Source of the DNA: a virus
Reading direction: 5' to 3' (one strand)
Virus record (IMG/VR): IMGVR_UViG_3300045988_139298
DNA length: 19,416 nucleotides
This document shows, one piece after another, positions 1,612-19,416 of this stretch. The notes below the pieces were generated by a model that worked only from the letters and a program-made list of their open reading frames with translations, made no database searches and was not told the DNA's origin. Within the stretch, counting starts at the first letter, position 1. Each line of letters begins with the position of its first letter. The position numbers and the translations under genes are program-made.

Positions 1612-2628
1612 TTAATATTTACTGAGTATGTAACTTAATAATCGTTTTGTTTCTTGGTTATTGTAGTACACGCAACCGTCTCGGTATGATCGTATTAACA
1701 TGTTTAGTCGTTGGTCTTTACGCCATAGTTTCGCGATCATCATGTTTTCACGGTTATTACTTCCAATGGAATAACAATATCCGTATTCCTTATTTATCTG
1801 TTGGTTGATATACACATAACCCGTGTTCATATCAATCCATACACCATAATAGATATCATCATAGTATAGTGTACATAAATAATCGCATACGTTTGTTTTC
1901 TTTTTGATAAAGTCGTTTGTATCATAAGCAAACTTACCAGCGTTATATTCTCCGTACGTAGTTCCGGAAATTAATTTATGGAATTTCGATTTTTCTTTAT
2001 TTCCTTTTTTGTACTCATTTTGACATATTTGGACGACAATTTGTTCAACGGATTCACTACCTTTAAATGTATTAAATTCTTTGCTTGGGTCGGGTGTAAT
2101 ACCAAAATAACTAAAATAAGGGTTAACGATACTTGCGTTATTTGCTAATAAATATACATGCCCTTCTCTTTGTCTAAATATAGAGTCAATAATATTTAAT
2201 AATATTTCAACTTCATTCGGGATATACGCGTTAAAGCCTGCCTTTTCGGGTATAAATTCGTCAACAATAATTGTATCGATATCAACATAACTTGTTGATT
2301 TTAAACTTGCAAACGCTGTTAAAGATGTGGCGTATCCCATTTCACAACCGTTTATATAAAAGGTGGTAAAATTGCTACCACCTGTAATTTTAAACTCATC
2401 ATCTTTAAAATTTTCAAACTGATCATTTAAAAATGTTTTGATTTTCTTTAGGTCCGTTTTGTAACGTCTTAAGTAAAGAAATTGTTTTCCTTTTTTCTTA
2501 TATCGGCTGATACAGTCTTTTTTGAACCCATAGGTTTTACCAATTCCACGACCGCCAATGATGAAATTTAAAAATTTATTGTATGACTTTATGTTGGTAG
2601 GTGTGTACCAATCAATTGACTTTGTCAT
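1612..2628 (-). CDS. DNA encapsidation (packaging) ATPase, phi29 gp16-like
   Basis: Walker A is GGRGIGKT. The segments FLYLRRYK, IIVDEF (Walker B-like), YIPNEV and NNASIVNPYF line up with my recollection of phi29 gp16 (GARGIGKS, FIYVRRYK, IVFDEF, YIPNEV, SNAVSVVNPYF). It is the last gene of the late operon, as in phi29. Confidence 0.92.
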   Translation of the reverse strand: MTKSIDWYTPTNIKSYNKFLNFIIGGRGIGKTYGFKKDCISRYKKKGKQFLYLRRYKTDLKKIKTFLNDQFENFKDDEFKITGGSNFTTFYINGCEMGYATSLTAFASLKSTSYVDIDTIIVDEFIPEKAGFNAYIPNEVEILLNIIDSIFRQREGHVYLLANNASIVNPYFSYFGITPDPSKEFNTFKGSESVEQIVVQICQNEYKKGNKEKSKFHKLISGTTYGEYNAGKFAYDTNDFIKKKTNVCDYLCTLYYDDIYYGVWIDMNTGYVYINQQINKEYGYCYSIGSNNRENMMIAKLWRKDQRLNMLIRSYRDGCVYYNNQETKRLLSYILSKY

Positions 2629-3362: not shown

Positions 3363-4091
3363 CTAAAAAATATTGAAAAATAATCCATATTCCTGTAGTT
3401 CCGCGTATAACTCATTTTCAATGGTAATAACTGCACGTCGTGACCCTTGTAATACCTCCGCTAACGTTTGGATACCGATATTACCTTTACGCTTAAAGCT
3501 GTATTCTTCATGTCCTGTCGTGTCATTTGCACTTTTTGGTTTTGTGATTGTTTTAGCAATGTTATTAACATAGTCGTTTGTTTCAATATCCACACGTCCT
3601 TCCGGAGTTACAGACTGTAAAGCAATGCTCGTATCTTCTCCACTTGCTTGTGTGTTTCCTCGACTGTCACGCGTGTATGTTTCTGTGTAGTTTGTGTTTG
3701 CTGTTGGGTCGTCTTGGTCTTGAAAAGGGATTGTTTTAAATAACGTATAATATCTATCCATATTGATTTCAAACCAGTGTTGAAGTTCAAATTTCCAATA
3801 CGCATATGTCTCTTGACCGATCTCGTCAAACCAAAAGTGCTTTAAAATACCGGTTTCAAAAGCTTTTCGTTTTTCAAGATCATCATAGAAAGGATAGTTA
3901 AAATCGAAAATCTTTTTTCTTGCGATCTCTAACACTTCCATATCGCTTAATTCATATTGAGCGTCAATTAACTCCGTAAATGCTAGGTTGTGACATACAC
4001 CGCATATAGTTTCGGTGTTTTCCGCAAGCACCGGACTTTGTAAAGTTAACAAATAATTAGGTACTTTTAATTTTTTAAACATACTAATCAC
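3363..4091 (-). CDS. Lower collar protein (phi29 gp11 position)
   Basis: It lies immediately downstream of the portal gene and overlaps it by 8 nt, matching the phi29 order tail knob, connector, lower collar. I recognised no motif, so this call rests on synteny and size. Confidence 0.6.
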   Translation of the reverse strand: MISMFKKLKVPNYLLTLQSPVLAENTETICGVCHNLAFTELIDAQYELSDMEVLEIARKKIFDFNYPFYDDLEKRKAFETGILKHFWFDEIGQETYAYWKFELQHWFEINMDRYYTLFKTIPFQDQDDPTANTNYTETYTRDSRGNTQASGEDTSIALQSVTPEGRVDIETNDYVNNIAKTITKPKSANDTTGHEEYSFKRKGNIGIQTLAEVLQGSRRAVITIENELYAELQEYGLFFNIF

Positions 4092-5025
4092 CTTCTTTTT
4101 TAATTGTTAGGTCGTCTTTAAAATCCGTAAGGCTTGTATCACTGTCTAATTCAATCAATTTTAAGATGTCCTCAAAGTCTTCATATGGTGCAAACTCAAC
4201 ACTAGCGTTTAAATTAAATTTCTTATTTAATTCATCAATGGCTTTTTTACGCTCACTAAGCCAAATATTACGAGAAGCAATAACCTGTTGATTGTTAGCG
4301 TTGACCTCATCCGATACTAGCCTTTCTTTTTTGTCCATGTTGGCATTTTCAATGCCTAATAGAGTCATGCATTCACGCAAAATCGCTTGCTTCATGCCGT
4401 GCAATTCGTCCGCAATAAAAGGTGCGTTTGTTTGTAACACGTTAACGTCTTCCGTTCTGAATCCTTTTGAAGTAAAGATCGTTTGAACGCCTTGTAAAAT
4501 CTTTTTCATGAACACTTTGAATTGCTGTAACATACGCTTATCACCTGTAATGATGTACGGTGTCCATTGCATGGTCAAATTTTGGTCCATCGTTCGACTT
4601 GTTAAAGCTAGTTTCTTAGCGAAAAAATTTAAGTATGGGAAGATACCCACATATAAAGGACTGTTCTTCATAATTACACATTCATTACTTGATAAATTCT
4701 TTTTAACAAGTGGACTTGTTGATACTGTATGATATTCGGTTGGCATTTGATAGTGGTTGAGTTTACCGCCTAGTGTGATTTCACTACAAATTAAACCTAA
4801 TCTTTCATCATCATAAAAACCAATGTAACCACGTGTTTGTAAAACATATTCTAAATAGAATGTATTAATGGACTCCGGCAAACCTTTATATTTAAACATG
4901 TTTAAACTTAGCATTTGTAAATACGTATAATAAATAAAATCCGCCTCTCCATTATTCATAGTAGCGACATCAACCGCGTTTCTACAATAATCTGTGAACG
5001 AGCTCGTATCATTTAATAAATCCAT
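4084..5025 (-). CDS. Portal / upper collar connector protein, phi29 gp10-like
   Basis: 313 aa versus about 309 aa for phi29 gp10. The segment LLGIENANMDKKERLVSDEVNAN closely matches my recollection of phi29 [23 protein letters not shown]. The N-terminal YLQ...LP..IN..FLE motif also corresponds. Confidence 0.9.
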   Translation of the reverse strand: MDLLNDTSSFTDYCRNAVDVATMNNGEADFIYYTYLQMLSLNMFKYKGLPESINTFYLEYVLQTRGYIGFYDDERLGLICSEITLGGKLNHYQMPTEYHTVSTSPLVKKNLSSNECVIMKNSPLYVGIFPYLNFFAKKLALTSRTMDQNLTMQWTPYIITGDKRMLQQFKVFMKKILQGVQTIFTSKGFRTEDVNVLQTNAPFIADELHGMKQAILRECMTLLGIENANMDKKERLVSDEVNANNQQVIASRNIWLSERKKAIDELNKKFNLNASVEFAPYEDFEDILKLIELDSDTSLTDFKDDLTIKKEGD

Positions 5026-7332: not shown

Positions 7333-8533
7333 ATTTATCTTTGATATAGTCATATATCTCACGTGCTTTAGTTCCTCTTTGAGGTTGGTTCGGGTCGGCT
7401 GGTCTTTCGTAGTTGGCTAAAAATTCTATGGCTAATGTATAAGGGTCAGCAGTTGATTTTGAAAAGCTCGCAAAACTTTCGGGGTATGTTGCTGTAGCAA
7501 TCCATTGTTGATTATTTTCCATTTCCCATTGAATTCGTTCGCATTCTCCTTGTCCAAACTTTGAAACATCCGGATAATATCCTTTTTCTTTTAGCCAGTC
7601 AATTATTTTAGTCCATGGCGTCCATTGTACTAACCCGTAACCACGTGAGGCAACCGGTTGTGCAAAAGGTACATCACCCTCCCATCGGTTCGGGTTAACA
7701 GTTGACTCAAAATAGGAGTTACCTAATATACCAGCAACCGCGTTTGCGGTCCAACCTTTAGCCTTAAAAAATTGCCAAAATGCTAACCAATTTTGTTTGG
7801 ACTCATCTTCTGTAAGTGGTCGCGTATTATTAATATCACCGGGAATAAACCACTCACACGTTGGTGTTGGCGGTTCGGGTTTGATCTCTTCTTTTGTTTT
7901 ATAAAATCCAAAATCAATACCTAAACCATCTAACATAAAATAGTGTTTAGTGTATTTGTATGAGGGTTCGGGCGTTGGAGGCTCGCCCCCTTCAAACGTT
8001 TGCCACGCTTGACCGTATCCATTTACAATATTTGTATCATTTACATAAAATACATTATTCGGTAACTCTGAACCACTTAGCGCGTAGCATTGATTCCCAT
8101 ATCTACATGTAACACCATAGTAGACGAGTCCGGCGTTTTGTGTAAAAGTTTGGTCGATGTGACAGTGGTCACCGGTCGCCATTCCAGCCGTACCCGTATG
8201 GTAAATTAGATCACCTTGTTTATATTGTGTAGCGGTTGGTGGGTTGGGGTCATGTGTAAAACTCACAGTGACATAGCTTAACCCATTTGGTGTTAGTACG
8301 GGATTGTCTGAGCTGTAAGCGCGTGTATTTCCGGAGTTGTCACTATAGGATAAGTGGCAACTAAACGGAGCATACACGGGTACGCGGACCTGCCCATTAA
8401 TTGCATTATCAAAAGGATGACCACAACAATGTGACACTGCCGTTGGACTTGACCATTGCGTGATATTCATTGTTTCCATAGGAAATAAACACACTTCATG
8501 GCCATCATGTGCTAACTTTTGACCGGCTTTCAT
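7331..8533 (-). CDS. Tail-associated peptidoglycan hydrolase: N-terminal M23 peptidase plus C-terminal phage tail lysozyme-like domain
   Basis: The HxH motif is GDHCHID (aa 121-127), with an upstream GHPFD. The C-terminal half has AGILGNSYFES...RGYGLVQWT, typical of phage tail lysozyme domains. Two Pro-rich linkers (EPPTPEP, PEPPTPT) separate the halves. Confidence 0.85.
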   Translation of the reverse strand: MKAGQKLAHDGHEVCLFPMETMNITQWSSPTAVSHCCGHPFDNAINGQVRVPVYAPFSCHLSYSDNSGNTRAYSSDNPVLTPNGLSYVTVSFTHDPNPPTATQYKQGDLIYHTGTAGMATGDHCHIDQTFTQNAGLVYYGVTCRYGNQCYALSGSELPNNVFYVNDTNIVNGYGQAWQTFEGGEPPTPEPSYKYTKHYFMLDGLGIDFGFYKTKEEIKPEPPTPTCEWFIPGDINNTRPLTEDESKQNWLAFWQFFKAKGWTANAVAGILGNSYFESTVNPNRWEGDVPFAQPVASRGYGLVQWTPWTKIIDWLKEKGYYPDVSKFGQGECERIQWEMENNQQWIATATYPESFASFSKSTADPYTLAIEFLANYERPADPNQPQRGTKAREIYDYIKDK

Positions 8534-11782: not shown

Positions 11783-11841
11783 GATCTCACCACCTTCAAA
11801 TACATATTAATACAAAATAAATAAAAATAAAAGAAAAAGAG

Positions 11842-11869
11842 TTAAATTAATAACTCTTTTTCCTAAGTT
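11842..11869 (-). terminator. Intrinsic terminator downstream of the major capsid gene
   Basis: An 11-bp stem (aaaaagagtta / taactcttttt) with loop aattaa. It is followed by TTCTTTTATTTTTATTT on the - strand. Confidence 0.7.
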
Positions 11870-11898
11870 GCAATTCACCTGAATAATAGAAAGGAGGG

Positions 11899-11921
11899 GT
11901 GTCATGTCCTACTCATGACAC
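11899..11921 (-). other. GC-containing hairpin in the capsid mRNA 3' UTR
   Basis: An 8-bp stem (gtgtcatg / catgacac) with a 7-nt loop, 17 nt after the capsid stop. There is no U-tract, so it may stabilise the transcript or act as a processing element. Confidence 0.4.
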
Positions 11922-11937
11922 TGATATTATAACATAA

Positions 11938-13287: not shown

Positions 13288-13304
13288 CTAAATCACCTCT
13301 TTCA

Positions 13305-13580
13305 TTAAATACCTAATTTTCTTAAATCCATTGGCGCTTCATGTTTCGGCTTTTCTCCGCCCGATTTTTCGACGCCAATTTGCATAAATAGTTTAGAGTT
13401 TGCTTCTGTTAAAGAAGTATTCTTTTCAACTAGTTTCGTGTTCTCGGCTTTCAAATTGTCTAACTCTGTATAAGTTTTCTCAACTTCAGCTCGCATATCA
13501 TTCAGCATTGTCGAGCGTTCCGCTTGATCTTCAACCGTTAACACCTCTGTGAACTTATTTCTTAATTCATCACGTTCCAT
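13305..13580 (-). CDS. Scaffolding protein, phi29 gp7-like
   Basis: 91 aa and a heptad-like helical sequence. ANSKLFMQIGV matches my recollection of phi29 gp7 SNSKLFRQIGL. It is the first gene after the late promoter. Confidence 0.85.
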   Translation of the reverse strand: MERDELRNKFTEVLTVEDQAERSTMLNDMRAEVEKTYTELDNLKAENTKLVEKNTSLTEANSKLFMQIGVEKSGGEKPKHEAPMDLRKLGI

Positions 13581-13604
13581 TTTTACACATCCCTTCTAAT
13601 TATT

Positions 13605-13633
13605 AATATATGCTAATAATATTTTAAAGTCAA
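13605..13633 (-). promoter_or_regulatory. Late-operon promoter
   Basis: On the - strand: TTGACT (13633-13628), an exact 17-nt spacer, then TATATT (13610-13605). It lies immediately downstream of the early terminator and 25 nt before the scaffold ATG. Confidence 0.7.
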
Positions 13634-13635
13634 TA

Positions 13636-13790
13636 AAAAATAAAACCCTCTTTTATGAGGGTTTTAAAAATATAGGCTGTAAAGTTTAAAGTGTTACCAG
13701 CTAGATTACTATTCCTATATATGTTATCAGCACGTTTCACCGCGAGTAATTCTGATATACATGTCTGATTTACTGTCTTTATTCCTTACA
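13636..13790 (-). ncRNA. Candidate structured non-coding RNA, about 150 nt (possible pRNA analogue)
   Basis: No ORF longer than 11 codons on either strand. A possible promoter is TTGGAA-17 nt-TAATAT (13824-13796). A 5'/3' closing helix pairs uguaagg-aa-uaaag (13790-13777) with cuuua-aa-cuuuaca (13691-13678), and the terminator hairpin follows. Folded by eye only. Confidence 0.3.
13642..13665 (-). terminator. Intrinsic terminator ending the early (replication) transcription unit
   Basis: The stem is aaaaccctc / gagggtttt with a 6-nt loop. It is followed by ATTTTTTATT on the - strand. Confidence 0.8.
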
Positions 13791-13806
13791 ATAGAATATT
13801 AACATA

Positions 13807-14028
13807 CTATTTATTTTTTTCCAAATCTTCTTTAATTTTATTTTTTACATATTTACTAAATTTTTTGGATTTCAATAAACATTCAATATAATCAACCACT
13901 TCAATTTCATCTTTATTGACGCAAACACAATATTTATTAACATGATCTCGATACCATTTATTTCGGTTTTCTTTCGATTTTTCACTCAACATCGTCATTA
14001 CATCCTTTTTCATCATCTTCTTTTTCAT
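13807..14028 (-). CDS. Small Lys-rich protein with a CxC motif, unknown function (up to 73 aa)
   Basis: It is the last ORF of the early block. The longest form overlaps the upstream ORF by 47 nt, so the true start may be an internal Met at 13998 or 13992. No motif recognised. Confidence 0.55.
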   Translation of the reverse strand: MKKKMMKKDVMTMLSEKSKENRNKWYRDHVNKYCVCVNKDEIEVVDYIECLLKSKKFSKYVKNKIKEDLEKNK

Positions 14029-14422
14029 ACTGCCATACTAACGGCATACCTAATATATAAGTGTGTACAAAGTCACTCGTTTCATGGTTCACAATGCTCC
14101 AGCCATTTTCTAAATATTGGTTTAACATATCAATATCTTTTCGATAGGCGGTATAATCATAATCCTTTATGCTCCTAACAACAACCACTTTGTTTTTGAG
14201 TGGAGAATTTCCGAACATGATCTCGTTAAATTCTTTTAGAGTTTTATCACACTTTTTAAATATTGCGTTATCACGATGATAAACTTCATAAGATAAACTA
14301 TCAAGTTCTTTATTCAAATATTTATAATTATCCTTTAAGGATTCATATTTACAATATATAATCAAACAAAAAACTGCTAACACAATAATACACATTAATA
14401 TCATTAAAAACATAAAATCCAT
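13982..14422 (-). CDS. Membrane-anchored early protein (146 aa)
   Basis: It has an N-terminal hydrophobic helix (FMFLMILMCIIVLAVFCLIIY) followed by a charged soluble region. SD AAGGAG precedes the start. It lies downstream of the DNA polymerase gene. Confidence 0.65.
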   Translation of the reverse strand: MDFMFLMILMCIIVLAVFCLIIYCKYESLKDNYKYLNKELDSLSYEVYHRDNAIFKKCDKTLKEFNEIMFGNSPLKNKVVVVRSIKDYDYTAYRKDIDMLNQYLENGWSIVNHETSDFVHTYILGMPLVWQYEKEDDEKGCNDDVE

Positions 14423-18755: not shown

Positions 18756-19013
18756 TTAATCCATACGGATTTGACCACTAGCATACTTAAGTAATTCATC
18801 TGATAGATCAGCAAACTGTAAGACTAAATAATCAAAATCACTAACTGTAACATCTTCGTCTTTTAAAGCGTTAAGTATAATAATGTGCATTGAATTAATA
18901 TAATTAACAATTAACACATTTTTAAATTCATCTTCATCCACAACCTTAATGGACTCTATAGCATTATTGTAAATATTCAATAGAACACTATCATATACTT
19001 CTTTTAATGTCAT
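18756..19013 (-). CDS. Strongly acidic small early protein (85 aa)
   Basis: First ORF after the right-ITR promoter and SD, with its ATG inside the ITR. By hand count it has 16 Asp/Glu against 6 Lys/Arg. No motif recognised. Confidence 0.7.
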   Translation of the reverse strand: MTLKEVYDSVLLNIYNNAIESIKVVDEDEFKNVLIVNYINSMHIIILNALKDEDVTVSDFDYLVLQFADLSDELLKYASGQIRMD

Positions 19014-19416
19014 TTTCTTAAGCCCTCCTTCTTTTCACCTATAGTATAACACACCTATTCTAGAACACAAGTGTTTTTATAATTTCACATAATTCACAAC
19101 CGAGCCGTGTGGGTCAATGTTTCACGTGGAACATTGTTATATGGTGGTGTGTGGTGGTGTGTCGTGTGATGGTATGCTATGTGGTGCGTGAGCGGAGCTA
19201 GGACGAGTGGAGCGAGACCACGCCGAGCGGAGCGAGGCAAGCCGAGACATGCGGAGCATGTCGAGGCAGTGCCGAACAGAGTGAGACCACACCGAGCGAA
19301 GCGAGGCGGTGTTGTATGGTGTTAGTTAGTGTTAACTAATGCTATCCTATGTGTGTTCATGTTCTGTGAACATGTGTACGTCAATGGGGTACAGGGTCAT
19401 GCTGACACTCTTTTTT
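19010..19416. repeat. Right inverted terminal repeat, 407 bp
   Basis: Exact reverse complement of 1-407. It ends ...CTCTTTTTT-3'. Confidence 0.97.
19043..19070 (-). promoter_or_regulatory. Identical inward-facing promoter inside the right ITR
   Basis: This is the mirror copy of 347-374. It drives the ATG at 19013 through the same SD and 5' UTR. Confidence 0.6.

Follow-up and report, generated by a model that had tools for sequence, protein, structure and literature searches.

A very probable packaging RNA gene of the phi29 family between the early and late operons of a metagenomic phage

A short segment on the minus strand of the virus record IMGVR_UViG_3300045988_139298 is very likely a gene for a prohead or packaging RNA (pRNA) and a divergent member of the phi29 pRNA family. 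The window referred to below is the whole stretch of DNA that was analysed, 19,416 nucleotides. The segment had been proposed as a pRNA analogue because of its position, its size and the pairing of its ends. This likeness holds, and covariance models connect the segment with known pRNAs in both directions. The sequence comparisons support a homologue within the pRNA family rather than a mere analogue, and a packaging function would follow from membership in that family. To our knowledge, pRNA is the only RNA that forms an integral part of a viral DNA-packaging motor, and for a long time it was, as far as we know, the one natural RNA for which rings of more than two copies had been demonstrated. 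RNA nanotechnology also makes heavy use of it. In reviews pRNA is still presented as confined to phi29 and its relatives among the Bacillus phages (PMC11476376, PMC5066667). If the assignment proposed here is right, the family would also include an uncultured clade, represented by at least 80 metagenomic genomes, whose proteins are 32-44% identical to those of phi29.

The element is located downstream of the DNA polymerase gene and small early ORFs, on the same strand, between the early and the late operons. The last early ORF ends with a stop codon at 13809-13807, and no other non-coding gap inside the genome is as large as the one that follows (13806-13581, 226 nt), the next largest being about 155 nt, which agrees with the earlier remark that so ORF-poor a gap is unusual here. 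The signals in and around this gap are the following.

13796-13824, minus strand: promoter of the putative pRNA, upstream of a predicted start at about G13789
13635-13789, minus strand: predicted full-length pRNA transcript of about 155 nt, bounded by promoter and terminator
13635-13666, minus strand: intrinsic terminator with a 10-bp stem (13666-13641) and a T tract (13640-13635)
13605-13633, minus strand: late promoter TTGACT-17-TATATT of the scaffold and head operon, 10 of 12 matches

The -35 hexamer of the first promoter, TTGGAA (13824-13819), lies within the final codons of a 73-aa early ORF and is followed by a 17-nt spacer, with a TG at 13804-13803 that makes an extended -10, and by the -10 hexamer TAATAT (13801-13796). 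A simple promoter scan omits this promoter because only 8 of its 12 positions match the consensus hexamers. In the 79 homologues the TG has a conservation of 90% or more and T-A-n-T-A-T never varies, whereas the positions next to them do. The terminator is the sole terminator-like site in 13300-14100 (shuffle mean 0.1) and it is conserved, including a compensatory change from CCCUC/GAGGG to CUCUC/GAGAG in two relatives (L076 and L078). The late promoter, in which TTGAC and TATATT are invariant in the alignment of homologues, overlaps the end of the terminator tail; it belongs to the context and is outside the RNA. The coordinates given in the original prediction for the promoter, the end pairing and the terminator are all correct on the minus strand. 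The predicted transcript consists of a folded domain I of about 113 nt, a 12-nt linker and the terminator hairpin. Judged by these signals, 13789-13635 on the minus strand constitutes an autonomous small transcription unit. No tRNA or tmRNA was found in a search for them.

The element is non-coding. It had been stated that the region contains no ORF longer than 11 codons; this is true for ATG starts, but not when bacterial start codons are allowed, as there is then a 36-codon GTG ORF on the minus strand (13740-13630) and a 25-codon GTG ORF on the plus strand. Neither ORF is conserved. It is barely credible that the 36-codon ORF is a small protein gene, even though a stop-free frame of 36-48 codons spans the region in most relatives. 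The GTG has no Shine-Dalgarno sequence ahead of it, lies within the loop of the E hairpin described below and is replaced by GTA or GCG in six relatives. In the divergent relatives L020 and L026 the frame contains five or more stops while the RNA pairs are retained. Such an ORF would also cross the terminator into the late promoter, and the residues that it encodes change freely under the covariation of the helices. The 36-codon ORF was rejected as a gene because neither its start codon nor its frame is conserved.

What is conserved is an RNA fold. Across 79 homologues from related metagenomic phages, domain I forms a three-way junction with the following parts, all on the minus strand.

13677-13791, minus strand: domain I, the region matched by covariance models (135 bits with model R1, 52.9 bits with model R3)
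13765-13790, minus strand: A helix, 5' strand (helices 1-3 of the covariation analysis)
13678-13700, minus strand: A helix, 3' strand, from the covariation analysis
13721-13762, minus strand: C helix enclosing the CE bulge and the E hairpin (helices 4-5 of the covariation analysis)
13745-13751, minus strand: CE bulge AAUUACU, 7 nt on the 5' side only, of which AUUACU (13750-13745) is complementary to the D loop
13731-13744, minus strand: E hairpin CGCG-GUGAAA-CGUG, 4 bp with a 6-nt loop (helix 7 of the covariation analysis)
13702-13717, minus strand: putative D hairpin, UAG (13717-13715) with CUA (13704-13702) (helix 8 of the covariation analysis)

The structure exceeds what is expected by chance, and the decisive evidence is covariation in the 79 distinct homologues. 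Their 36 pairs are 99.7% paired and 14 of these pairs have changed on both sides; none of 500 shuffles reaches the observed level, and slid controls are 25-39% paired. Thermodynamic folding of the single sequence gives a z-score of -2.88 for 165 nt (2 of 200 shuffles) and an unremarkable -1.79 for the 115-nt core. Folding of the homologue alignment de novo with RNAalifold, which like the energy calculation had been suggested as a check, recovers the A, C and E helices and does not recover the D hairpin. Conserved G-U pairs are present in 79, 70 and 66 of the 79 sequences and are C-A mismatches on the opposite strand; therefore the fold belongs to the minus strand and fits RNA rather than duplex DNA.

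The A helix is interrupted and has 16 pairs in three segments, which are 99.7-100% paired with five pairs changed on both sides. Its 5' strand runs from (U)GUAAGG (13790-13784) through an AA loop to UAAAG (13781-13777) and, after a 7-nt loop, to AUCAG (13769-13765). The 3' strand starts with CUGGU (13700-13696) and continues through an AACA loop to CUUUA (13691-13687) and through an AA loop to CUUUAC(A) (13684-13678). The outer part corresponds to the terminal helix that had been predicted, UGUAAGG-AA-UAAAG (13790-13777) with CUUUA-AA-CUUUACA (13691-13678), and relatives carry compensatory changes in it, G-C to A-U in L066 and UAAAG/CUUUA to UAACA/UGUUA in L020 and L026. The ends of the helix, AAGG on the 5' side and CUUU on the 3' side, are common to the pRNAs of GA-1, Harambe, Karezi, B103 and phi29.

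The approximately 85 nt that the predicted terminal helix encloses are arranged as in phi29 pRNA, with a C helix, a CE bulge, an E hairpin and a putative D hairpin. In the C helix AUG (13762-13760) pairs with CAU (13723-13721) and UAUCAG (13757-13752) with CUGAUA (13730-13725). Its nine pairs are 100% paired, five of them have changed on both sides, and variants include UAUCAG/CUGAUA, GUUAG/CUAAC, ACCGG/CCGGU and AUUGG/CCAAU. The 3' strand of the E hairpin is continuous with that of the C helix; this hairpin occurs as CGCG/CGUG, CGUG/CAUG, CAUG/CAUG, CACG/CGUG and UACG/CGUA, and the C and E helices together have seven compensatory pairs. The D stem gives no covariation because its three pairs are invariant in the 79 sequences. 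RNAalifold prefers a nested alternative to the D hairpin, which is broken in L020 and L026, and the D-hairpin columns align with the D helix of known pRNAs, which co-varies there. The D loop is GAAUAGUAAU (13714-13705), and the linkers of the junction are AC, AUA and G, compared with 1, 3 and 0 nt in the phi29 consensus.

Two further explanations can be weighed against this fold. The segment could be a cis element, either a 3' UTR or terminator structure of the early operon or a DNA, single-stranded DNA or protein-binding region that controls the late promoter. It does lie directly upstream of that promoter, and transcripts reading through from the early operon would contain it too. This explanation is improbable, however, as transcription from the conserved extended -10 promoter would begin at precisely the first paired base, the G-U pairs point to the minus-strand RNA, and a junction with loop-loop covariation and matches to known pRNAs would be unexpected in a terminator region or an operator. 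It is even harder to see the segment as the remnant of a decaying pRNA gene, in phages whose motor has become independent of RNA, although the acidic N-terminus of the connector described below would suit such a loss. Domain I is the best-conserved nucleotide segment among the 80 genomes (median identity of 90.2% versus 79-87% for genes), every variable helix is kept by compensatory changes, and conservation extends to the promoter and the terminator. Conservation and compensation of this kind would be absent from a relic.

The CE bulge and the D loop are complementary to each other, AUUACU with AGUAAU (13710-13705). Between 4 and 6 contiguous Watson-Crick pairs can form in 78 of the 79 sequences, and the longest Watson-Crick run averages 5.43, versus 3.31 +/- 0.09 for shuffled loops. 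In L020 and L026, the most divergent relatives, both loops have switched in concert from UUAC(U)/(A)GUAA to UUUUC/GAAAA. By analogy with phi29, this complementarity appears to be the counterpart of the kissing interaction that builds the pRNA ring, in which case the pairing would be intermolecular.

The link to known pRNAs comes from covariance models, whose E-values are rough because of shortened calibration. Model R1 was built from the clade of the window only and was searched, with filters off, against phi29, GA-1, Harambe and an Enterococcus phage. In the window it scores 135 bits for domain I and has no other match. Its top match in the four phage genomes is GA-1 1765-1882 on the minus strand (32.3 bits, E = 1.8e-4), where the pRNA of that phage is annotated (1719-1879), and the second is Harambe 172-291 on the minus strand (23.6 bits, E = 0.014), within the published prediction at 288-122; background matches reach at most 12.7 bits. 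With default filters R1 had no match outside the window, so that the known pRNAs are matched only with filters off, and even then R1 did not recover the pRNA of phi29 itself, which a mixed model, R2, found at E = 0.08 only. In the reverse direction, model R3, made only from the pRNAs of five Bacillus phages (phi29, B103, GA-1, Karezi and Harambe), matches the window at 13677-13791 on the minus strand with 52.9 bits (E = 1.3e-10; the runner-up in the window has 11.7 bits) and the divergent copy in L020 with 43 bits. The R3 test is not fully independent because its alignment came from a model that included sequences of the window clade. When the structure of the window element is applied to the five Bacillus-phage pRNAs, it is 94.9% paired and 25 of 32 pairs are compensatory.

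The Rfam family RF00044, with which a search had been suggested, gave no match, either at the gathering threshold over the whole window or at E <= 10 in 13300-14100. This result is uninformative because the gathering threshold of 100 bits also misses the annotated GA-1 pRNA. The threshold delimits the phi29 subgroup and not the whole pRNA family, and RF00044 is too narrow for the latter, while models R1-R3 link pRNA subgroups that it leaves apart. Other Rfam matches were at chance level and were set aside: a rimP leader, which is merely the terminator, CRISPR-DR and snoRNAs. In nucleotide BLAST searches of 50,697 phage records, neither the region nor the whole genome had a match.

The secondary structure has the same topology as phi29 pRNA (RF00044 Phage_pRNA; NC_011048 147-320), namely the Rfam consensus order of A, 1-2 nt, C, a 5' bulge, E, 3 nt, D and the 3' strand of A. 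The E hairpin of phi29 also has 4 bp and a 6-nt loop and is continuous with the 3' strand of C, and 4-6 bp of complementarity between the CE and D loops are common to the two RNAs. In both phages the RNA gene follows the polymerase operon on the same strand, and gp16 and gp10 homologues are encoded as partners. However, the details differ. In the window element the 16 bp of the A helix are split into three segments by 2x2 and 7x4 internal loops, whereas phi29 has about 25 bp with a CCA bulge, and the putative D hairpin has 3 bp and a 10-nt loop instead of 6 bp and a 5-nt loop. The kissing sequence is A/U-rich with up to 6 bp, whereas phi29 uses AACC/GGUU. The phi29 gene is at the genome end and that of the window is between the early and late operons. 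The lengths are 174 nt for phi29 pRNA, 161 nt for the annotation in GA-1 and about 155 nt in the window.

The GA-1 pRNA (misc_RNA, X96987.2 1719-1879, minus strand) resembles the window element in the A, C, E and D helices over a full-length alignment. Both begin with UAAGG at the 5' end, have UUUA at the 3' end and carry UAC/GUA as the core of their CE and D loops. The GA-1 gene is also internal to its genome rather than terminal, and it has a terminator and its own promoter, whose -35 lies within the ORF before it. The rest of the primary sequence is dissimilar (32 bits of a possible 135 or so). In GA-1 another early operon follows the pRNA, whereas late genes follow it in the window. GA-1 infects Bacillus, in contrast to the probable gut anaerobe that is host to the phage of the window. 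The pRNA predicted for Harambe and BeachBum (Harambevirus; Schilling et al. 2018, Table S3) has GUAAGG at its start and CUUUGC at its end. In these phages the early operon has the orientation of the late operon, as in the window (PMC6266182), but the Harambe gene lies close to the left end of its genome and on the other strand (172-291, minus), rather than between early and late genes.

A putative pRNA has also been described for the Streptococcus phages Cp-1 and Cp-7 (Martin et al. 1996, as cited in PMC6266182). We know of no other earlier proposal of a pRNA outside the Bacillus phages. The gene order is that of the window, with terminal protein, polymerase, small ORFs, an ORF-free unit, a late promoter and scaffold, and the short ORF-free unit likewise has a promoter and a terminator. 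Published models could not reliably identify the Cp-1 and Cp-7 pRNA (PMC6266182). The Cp-7 region matches pRNA models weakly (E = 0.16-0.5) on the strand opposite to the annotated signals, whereas the window element matches strongly.

Of the 82 clade loci, 80 contain the element once and in syntenic position, and the remaining two lack coverage of the region. The phages of the clade probably come from gut Firmicutes, with a gut anaerobe as host. When IMG/VR was scanned again, starting from the major capsid protein that diverges most (that of L020), the same clade and one further locus came back, and thus no intermediate relatives. The packaging components that had been recognized as gp16-like and gp10-like are indeed present.

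1612-2628, minus strand: gp16-type packaging ATPase, presumed partner of the A helix (Pfam Podovirus_Gp16, 1.5e-73)
4084-5025, minus strand: gp10-type connector, presumed docking ring (Pfam Phage_connector, 1.5e-56)

The Pfam match of the ATPase is full-length, covering residues 1-330, and its PHROG assignment is terminase. The connector is different from those of known pRNA phages. The basic N-terminal arm of the phi29 connector has been reported to bind pRNA. A comparison of N-termini found no basic arm (RKR in phi29) in the connector of the window, whose N-terminus is acidic, with one K+R and six D+E in the first 30 residues; this is conserved in the clade. The first 30 residues of the phi29, GA-1, Harambe and Karezi connectors contain 6-8 K+R, and the basic N-terminus of GA-1 stands in direct contrast to the acidic one of the window.

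The missing arm also bears on whether the RNA packages DNA at all. A structured small RNA that arose from the pRNA fold or converged on it could instead have a non-packaging role, such as regulating the switch from early to late expression or acting as an sRNA against the host. Its location exactly at the boundary of early and late genes, with the terminator adjoining the late promoter, would suit such a role. It is nevertheless unlikely, since the covarying CE/D complementarity is under selection and matters for assembly of the phi29 motor, the AAGG and CUUU ends of the A helix are also retained under selection, and a full-length gp16-type ATPase is encoded. In addition, the conservation can be explained without long complementarity to any target.

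If the pRNA assignment is correct, the mechanism may be outlined from phi29. Late in infection, copies of the RNA would join head to tail through pairing of the CE and D loops. The resulting ring would sit on the portal vertex of the empty prohead with the A helices pointing outward, where they would recruit the gp16-type ATPase. This enzyme would move the linear genome, capped by terminal protein, through the gp10-type connector, and the RNA would depart once packaging is done. The terminator hairpin may stand in for domain II of phi29 pRNA, which is dispensable. Because the connector begins with an acidic and not a basic N-terminus, the way in which the RNA docks on the prohead is probably not the same in detail as in phi29. 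A more tentative suggestion is that packaging with pRNA, far from being peculiar to Bacillus phages, is ancestral to a much wider range of phi29-like phages, among them abundant uncultured phages of the human gut, and that docking in this clade may use a rewired interface, since a conserved acidic arm has replaced the basic one of the connector. Were this so, evolution could change the contacts between RNA and protein in the motor, whereas the fold of the RNA and the loops that form the ring would stay fixed.

The clade would provide about 80 natural sequence variants of pRNA, with covariation in the kissing loops and in every variable helix. It would also be a natural experiment in which pRNA is paired with a connector that does not have the canonical RNA-binding arm, and this bears on how the prohead holds the RNA and on where the RNA component came from.

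Gaps in other phages and in the window were compared with the element. In the Enterococcus phage vB_EfaP_2/Chl-5 the syntenic gap has a predicted fold with a similar junction, yet R1, R2 and R3 give no match. The gap before the scaffold gene of Harambe (7715-7880) was considered as a positional equivalent and rejected, as it is unstructured (z = -1.13) and the Harambe pRNA is at the left end. The remaining large gaps of the window are unstructured except for that behind the capsid gene, which resembles a hairpin plus a terminator.

The fold, the complementarity of two loops and covariance models run in both directions place the element on the minus strand at about 13789-13635 in the pRNA family; the original prediction had proposed a pRNA analogue there, downstream of the replication genes. 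It is well supported that the element is a pRNA gene, a divergent member of this known family and not a new kind of system. At 19,416 bp and 33% G+C, the window comprises the entire linear genome of a phi29-like podovirus. Its exact inverted terminal repeats of 407 bp (1-407 and 19010-19416) are far longer than the 6 bp annotated for phi29. Nearly all genes are carried on the minus strand, in the following order.

Gene order of the window
minus strand, first in order: small early ORFs
17725-17324, minus strand: single-stranded-DNA-binding protein
17267-16422, minus strand: probable terminal protein
16403-14577, minus strand: protein-primed DNA polymerase
14422-13982 and 14028-13807, minus strand: two small ORFs, followed by the 226-nt gap
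13580-13305, minus strand: scaffold, after the gap
13287-11938, minus strand: major head protein
minus strand, after the major head protein: tail, holin and lysin genes
5025-4084, minus strand: connector
minus strand, between connector and packaging ATPase: lower collar, then endolysin
2628-1612, minus strand: gp16-type packaging ATPase

In keeping with the rule for the family, the pRNA gene has its own promoter and closes the polymerase early operon at its distal end, read from the same strand. The difference here is that the early operon is directed towards the late operon, thus the pRNA gene lies between the two and not near a genome end. All coordinates of the original prediction were correct when re-read on the sequence. 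The promoter it named (TTGGAA, 13824-13819; 17 nt; TAATAT, 13801-13796) is present, and a TG two bases before TAATAT makes it an extended -10 promoter. The TG-n-TA-n-TAT of this promoter is invariant or nearly so in relatives while the surrounding bases vary. As in the window, the -35 of the GA-1 pRNA promoter lies within the preceding ORF. The early terminator was also found, as a hairpin (13666-13641) with a T tract that is the sole terminator-like site in the neighbourhood. Directly behind it comes the late promoter, TTGACT-17-TATATT (13633-13605), which is close to consensus. Between the 146-aa and the 73-aa early ORF there is a 47-nt overlap in different frames (13982-14028). Counting copies of at least 80% length, only 25 relatives have the former and 79 the latter, which indicates that the segment immediately upstream of the pRNA gene is variable.

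The gap had been called unusual for its lack of ORFs, and, with 226 nt, it is longer than any other internal non-coding stretch in the genome. The stated limit of 11 codons per ORF is correct for ATG starts only; with GTG as start, a mechanical listing gives a 36-codon ORF (13740-13630) and a 25-codon ORF on the plus strand. A protein gene at the 36-codon ORF was rejected because neither start nor frame is kept and there is no ribosome-binding site. Six relatives have GTA or GCG in place of its GTG, which sits in a hairpin loop; its frame has many stops in the clade loci L020 and L026 although the RNA pairs are kept, and it would read through the terminator. At the nucleotide level no segment of the region is better conserved than the 115-nt core of the RNA element, whose median identity to the window is 90.2%, versus 86.8% for polymerase, 86.6% for ATPase, 83.3% for scaffold and 79.2% for capsid genes.

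A capsid-protein search of IMG/VR gave 80 related contigs, and a second scan gave one more; protein identity is 79-98%. The gap region was found in every relative contig covering it, and 79 distinct sequences were aligned. L020 and L026 are the most divergent, with only about 69% identity to the window over a 250-nt region. The predicted structure reads as follows.

Parts of the element, 5' to 3'
about G13789, minus strand: predicted transcript start
A helix: three segments, GUAAGG/CUUUAC, UAAAG/CUUUA and AUCAG/CUGGU, with 2x2 and 7x4 internal loops between them
A-to-C linker: two bases
C helix: AUG/CAU and UAUCAG/CUGAUA
13751-13745, minus strand: CE bulge, AAUUACU, seven bases on the 5' side only
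13744-13731, minus strand: E hairpin, four pairs and a six-base loop, 3' strand continuous with the C helix
C-to-D linker: three bases
13717-13702, minus strand: predicted D hairpin, UAG, loop GAAUAGUAAU, CUA; then one base, then the A-helix 3' strand
terminator hairpin: twelve bases beyond the A-helix 3' strand

The Rfam consensus of phi29 pRNA has the same layout, including the E hairpin of 4 bp and 6 nt and the one-sided CE bulge. Across 36 pairs, standard pairing is seen in 99.7% of 2,844 cells, and both sides have changed in 14 pairs. None of 500 shuffles equalled the observed values, and when the 3' partners were slid only 25-39% paired. The inner helix occurs as UAUCAG/CUGAUA, GUUAG/CUAAC, ACCGG/CCGGU and AUUGG/CCAAU, and the small hairpin as CGCG/CGUG, CGUG/CAUG, CAUG/CAUG, CACG/CGUG and UACG/CGUA. 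The terminal pairing originally proposed, UGUAAGG-AA-UAAAG (13790-13777) with CUUUA-AA-CUUUACA (13691-13678), was confirmed, and it carries compensatory changes: G-C to A-U in locus L066, and UAAAG/CUUUA to UAACA/UGUUA in L020 and L026. That the structure belongs to the minus-strand transcript follows from G-U pairs that are highly conserved. Energy folding, suggested in the original prediction, is modest for the single sequence (z = -2.88 with the terminator, -1.79 for the core), and unguided alignment folding with RNAalifold finds the same helices, the last small hairpin excepted.

The hallmark of pRNA is a CE bulge complementary to the D loop, and the element has it. In the window AUUACU (13750-13745) is complementary to AGUAAU (13710-13705). 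The longest Watson-Crick run between these loops averages 5.43 bases in the 79 sequences versus 3.31 +/- 0.09 with a shuffled D loop. In L020 and L026 both loops have switched in concert, to UUUUC and GAAAA.

The Rfam family RF00044, the search originally suggested, gave no match to the element in a scan of the window. This model was built around phi29 and has a threshold of 100 bits. The annotated GA-1 pRNA (X96987.2, 1719-1879) also falls below its gathering score, so the negative result for the element says little. RF00044 covers the phi29 subgroup only, and negative Rfam pRNA scans are unreliable. A covariance model of the clade alone (R1) was run with filters off on about 160 kb, both strands counted, from the genomes of phi29, GA-1, Harambe and an Enterococcus phage. 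Its top match, GA-1 1765-1882 on the minus strand (32.3 bits; E = 1.8e-4, rough like all E-values here owing to a shortened calibration), coincides with the annotated pRNA. The second, Harambe 172-291 on the minus strand (23.6 bits), is within the pRNA predicted at 288-122 by Schilling et al., and the remaining matches in the four genomes reach at most 12.7 bits. R1 alone did not match phi29 pRNA; with a mixed model (R2) that pRNA is the top match in its genome, at E = 0.08 only. Reciprocally, a model of the phi29, B103, GA-1, Karezi and Harambe pRNAs (R3), whose alignment was built with a model that included clade sequences, matches the window at 13677-13791 on the minus strand over its full length (52.9 bits, E = 1.3e-10). 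The next best match in the window has 11.7 bits, and the divergent L020 copy scores 43 bits. When the window structure was transferred onto the five known pRNAs, 94.9% was paired and 25 of 32 pairs were compensatory. An AAGG 5' end and a CUUU 3' end are common to the element and the compared pRNAs.

Of 82 clade loci, 80 have a single R1 match each, about 545 nt upstream of the capsid gene and invariably on the strand of that gene; the remaining two do not extend over the region. In gene order the Streptococcus phage Cp-7 agrees with the window, and it has a short promoter-terminator unit at the corresponding place, where a pRNA was proposed for Cp-1 in 1996 (as cited in PMC6266182). The pRNA models match the Cp-7 unit weakly and on the opposite strand. 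The best match (NC_042114.1, 4882-4999, minus strand, E = 0.16-0.5) lies between ORF7 and the scaffold gene, starts CUGUAAGG and ends CUUUAUAA, opposite to the annotated promoter and terminator. Enterococcus phage vB_EfaP_2/Chl-5 (PV455607.1, 4606-4725) also has this gene order and a 267-nt ORF-free gap before scaffold, with an extended -10 and a terminator. The predicted fold of the gap is a three-way junction similar to that of pRNA (z = -3.12), in which a CACG-loop-CGUG hairpin comes after a 5' bulge. None of R1, R2 and R3 matches the gap, and bulge and loop are complementary over only about 3 bp.

Genes for both protein partners, connector and ATPase, are present in the window. By analogy with the phi29 motor (PMC5066667, PMC4201828, PMC11476376), the RNA would be expressed, bind the prohead and be required for packaging. 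Copies joined by CE-D loop pairing would form a ring on the portal vertex, with the A helices pointing outward as a scaffold for the gp16-type ATPase. The ATPase would pump the terminal-protein-linked genome through the connector, and the finished virion would lack the RNA. The phi29 connector is reported to bind pRNA with its basic N-terminus, MARKRS... (Xiao et al. 2005, as listed in PMC9965433), and GA-1, Harambe and Karezi connectors have 6-8 basic residues (K+R) in the first 30. In contrast, the window connector starts MDLLNDTSSFTDYCRNAVDVATMNNGEAD, with one K+R and six D+E in the first 30, and this acidic N-terminus is kept throughout the clade. Docking of the RNA on the prohead, if it occurs, would have to rely on a contact elsewhere, and the RNA-connector interface appears to be rewired in the clade.

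Published work still describes pRNA as a trait of phi29 and its Bacillus-phage relatives (PMC11476376, PMC5066667, PMC6266182), and literature searches on pRNA with metagenomes, Enterococcus phages or Salasmaviridae gave nothing on the clade. The element extends the family to an uncultured, probably non-Bacillus phage group. The clade is a large natural covariation set for pRNA, speaks for the Rfam family being too narrowly drawn, and offers a case with an apparently rewired connector interface. A search of 50,697 phage records gave no nucleotide match to the window. Among cultured phages its nearest relatives are Bacillus phages of the phi29 group, with identities of 44% for polymerase, 36-38% for ATPase and about 32% for capsid protein. 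A 94%-identical endolysin is encoded on a 20,113-bp contig (CAAGJJ010000031.1) of the human-gut 'Clostridia bacterium' MAG HGM12814; the contig is a whole phage genome within the MAG bin and only a weak hint as to host. The window phage probably infects an anaerobic Firmicute of the gut.

A 155-nt gap after the major head gene (11783-11937, minus strand) contains two hairpins (z = -3.78, 0/200 shuffles): one of 8 bp (GUGUCAUG...CAUGACAC), and a strong one of 14 bp that resembles a terminator and precedes a U tract. A terminator or attenuator behind the capsid gene is the probable role. A Pistol ribozyme (RF02679) was found in a phi29-like human faecal phage contig (MT835826.1, 16259-16334, minus strand), with 55 bits versus a gathering score of 34.5.
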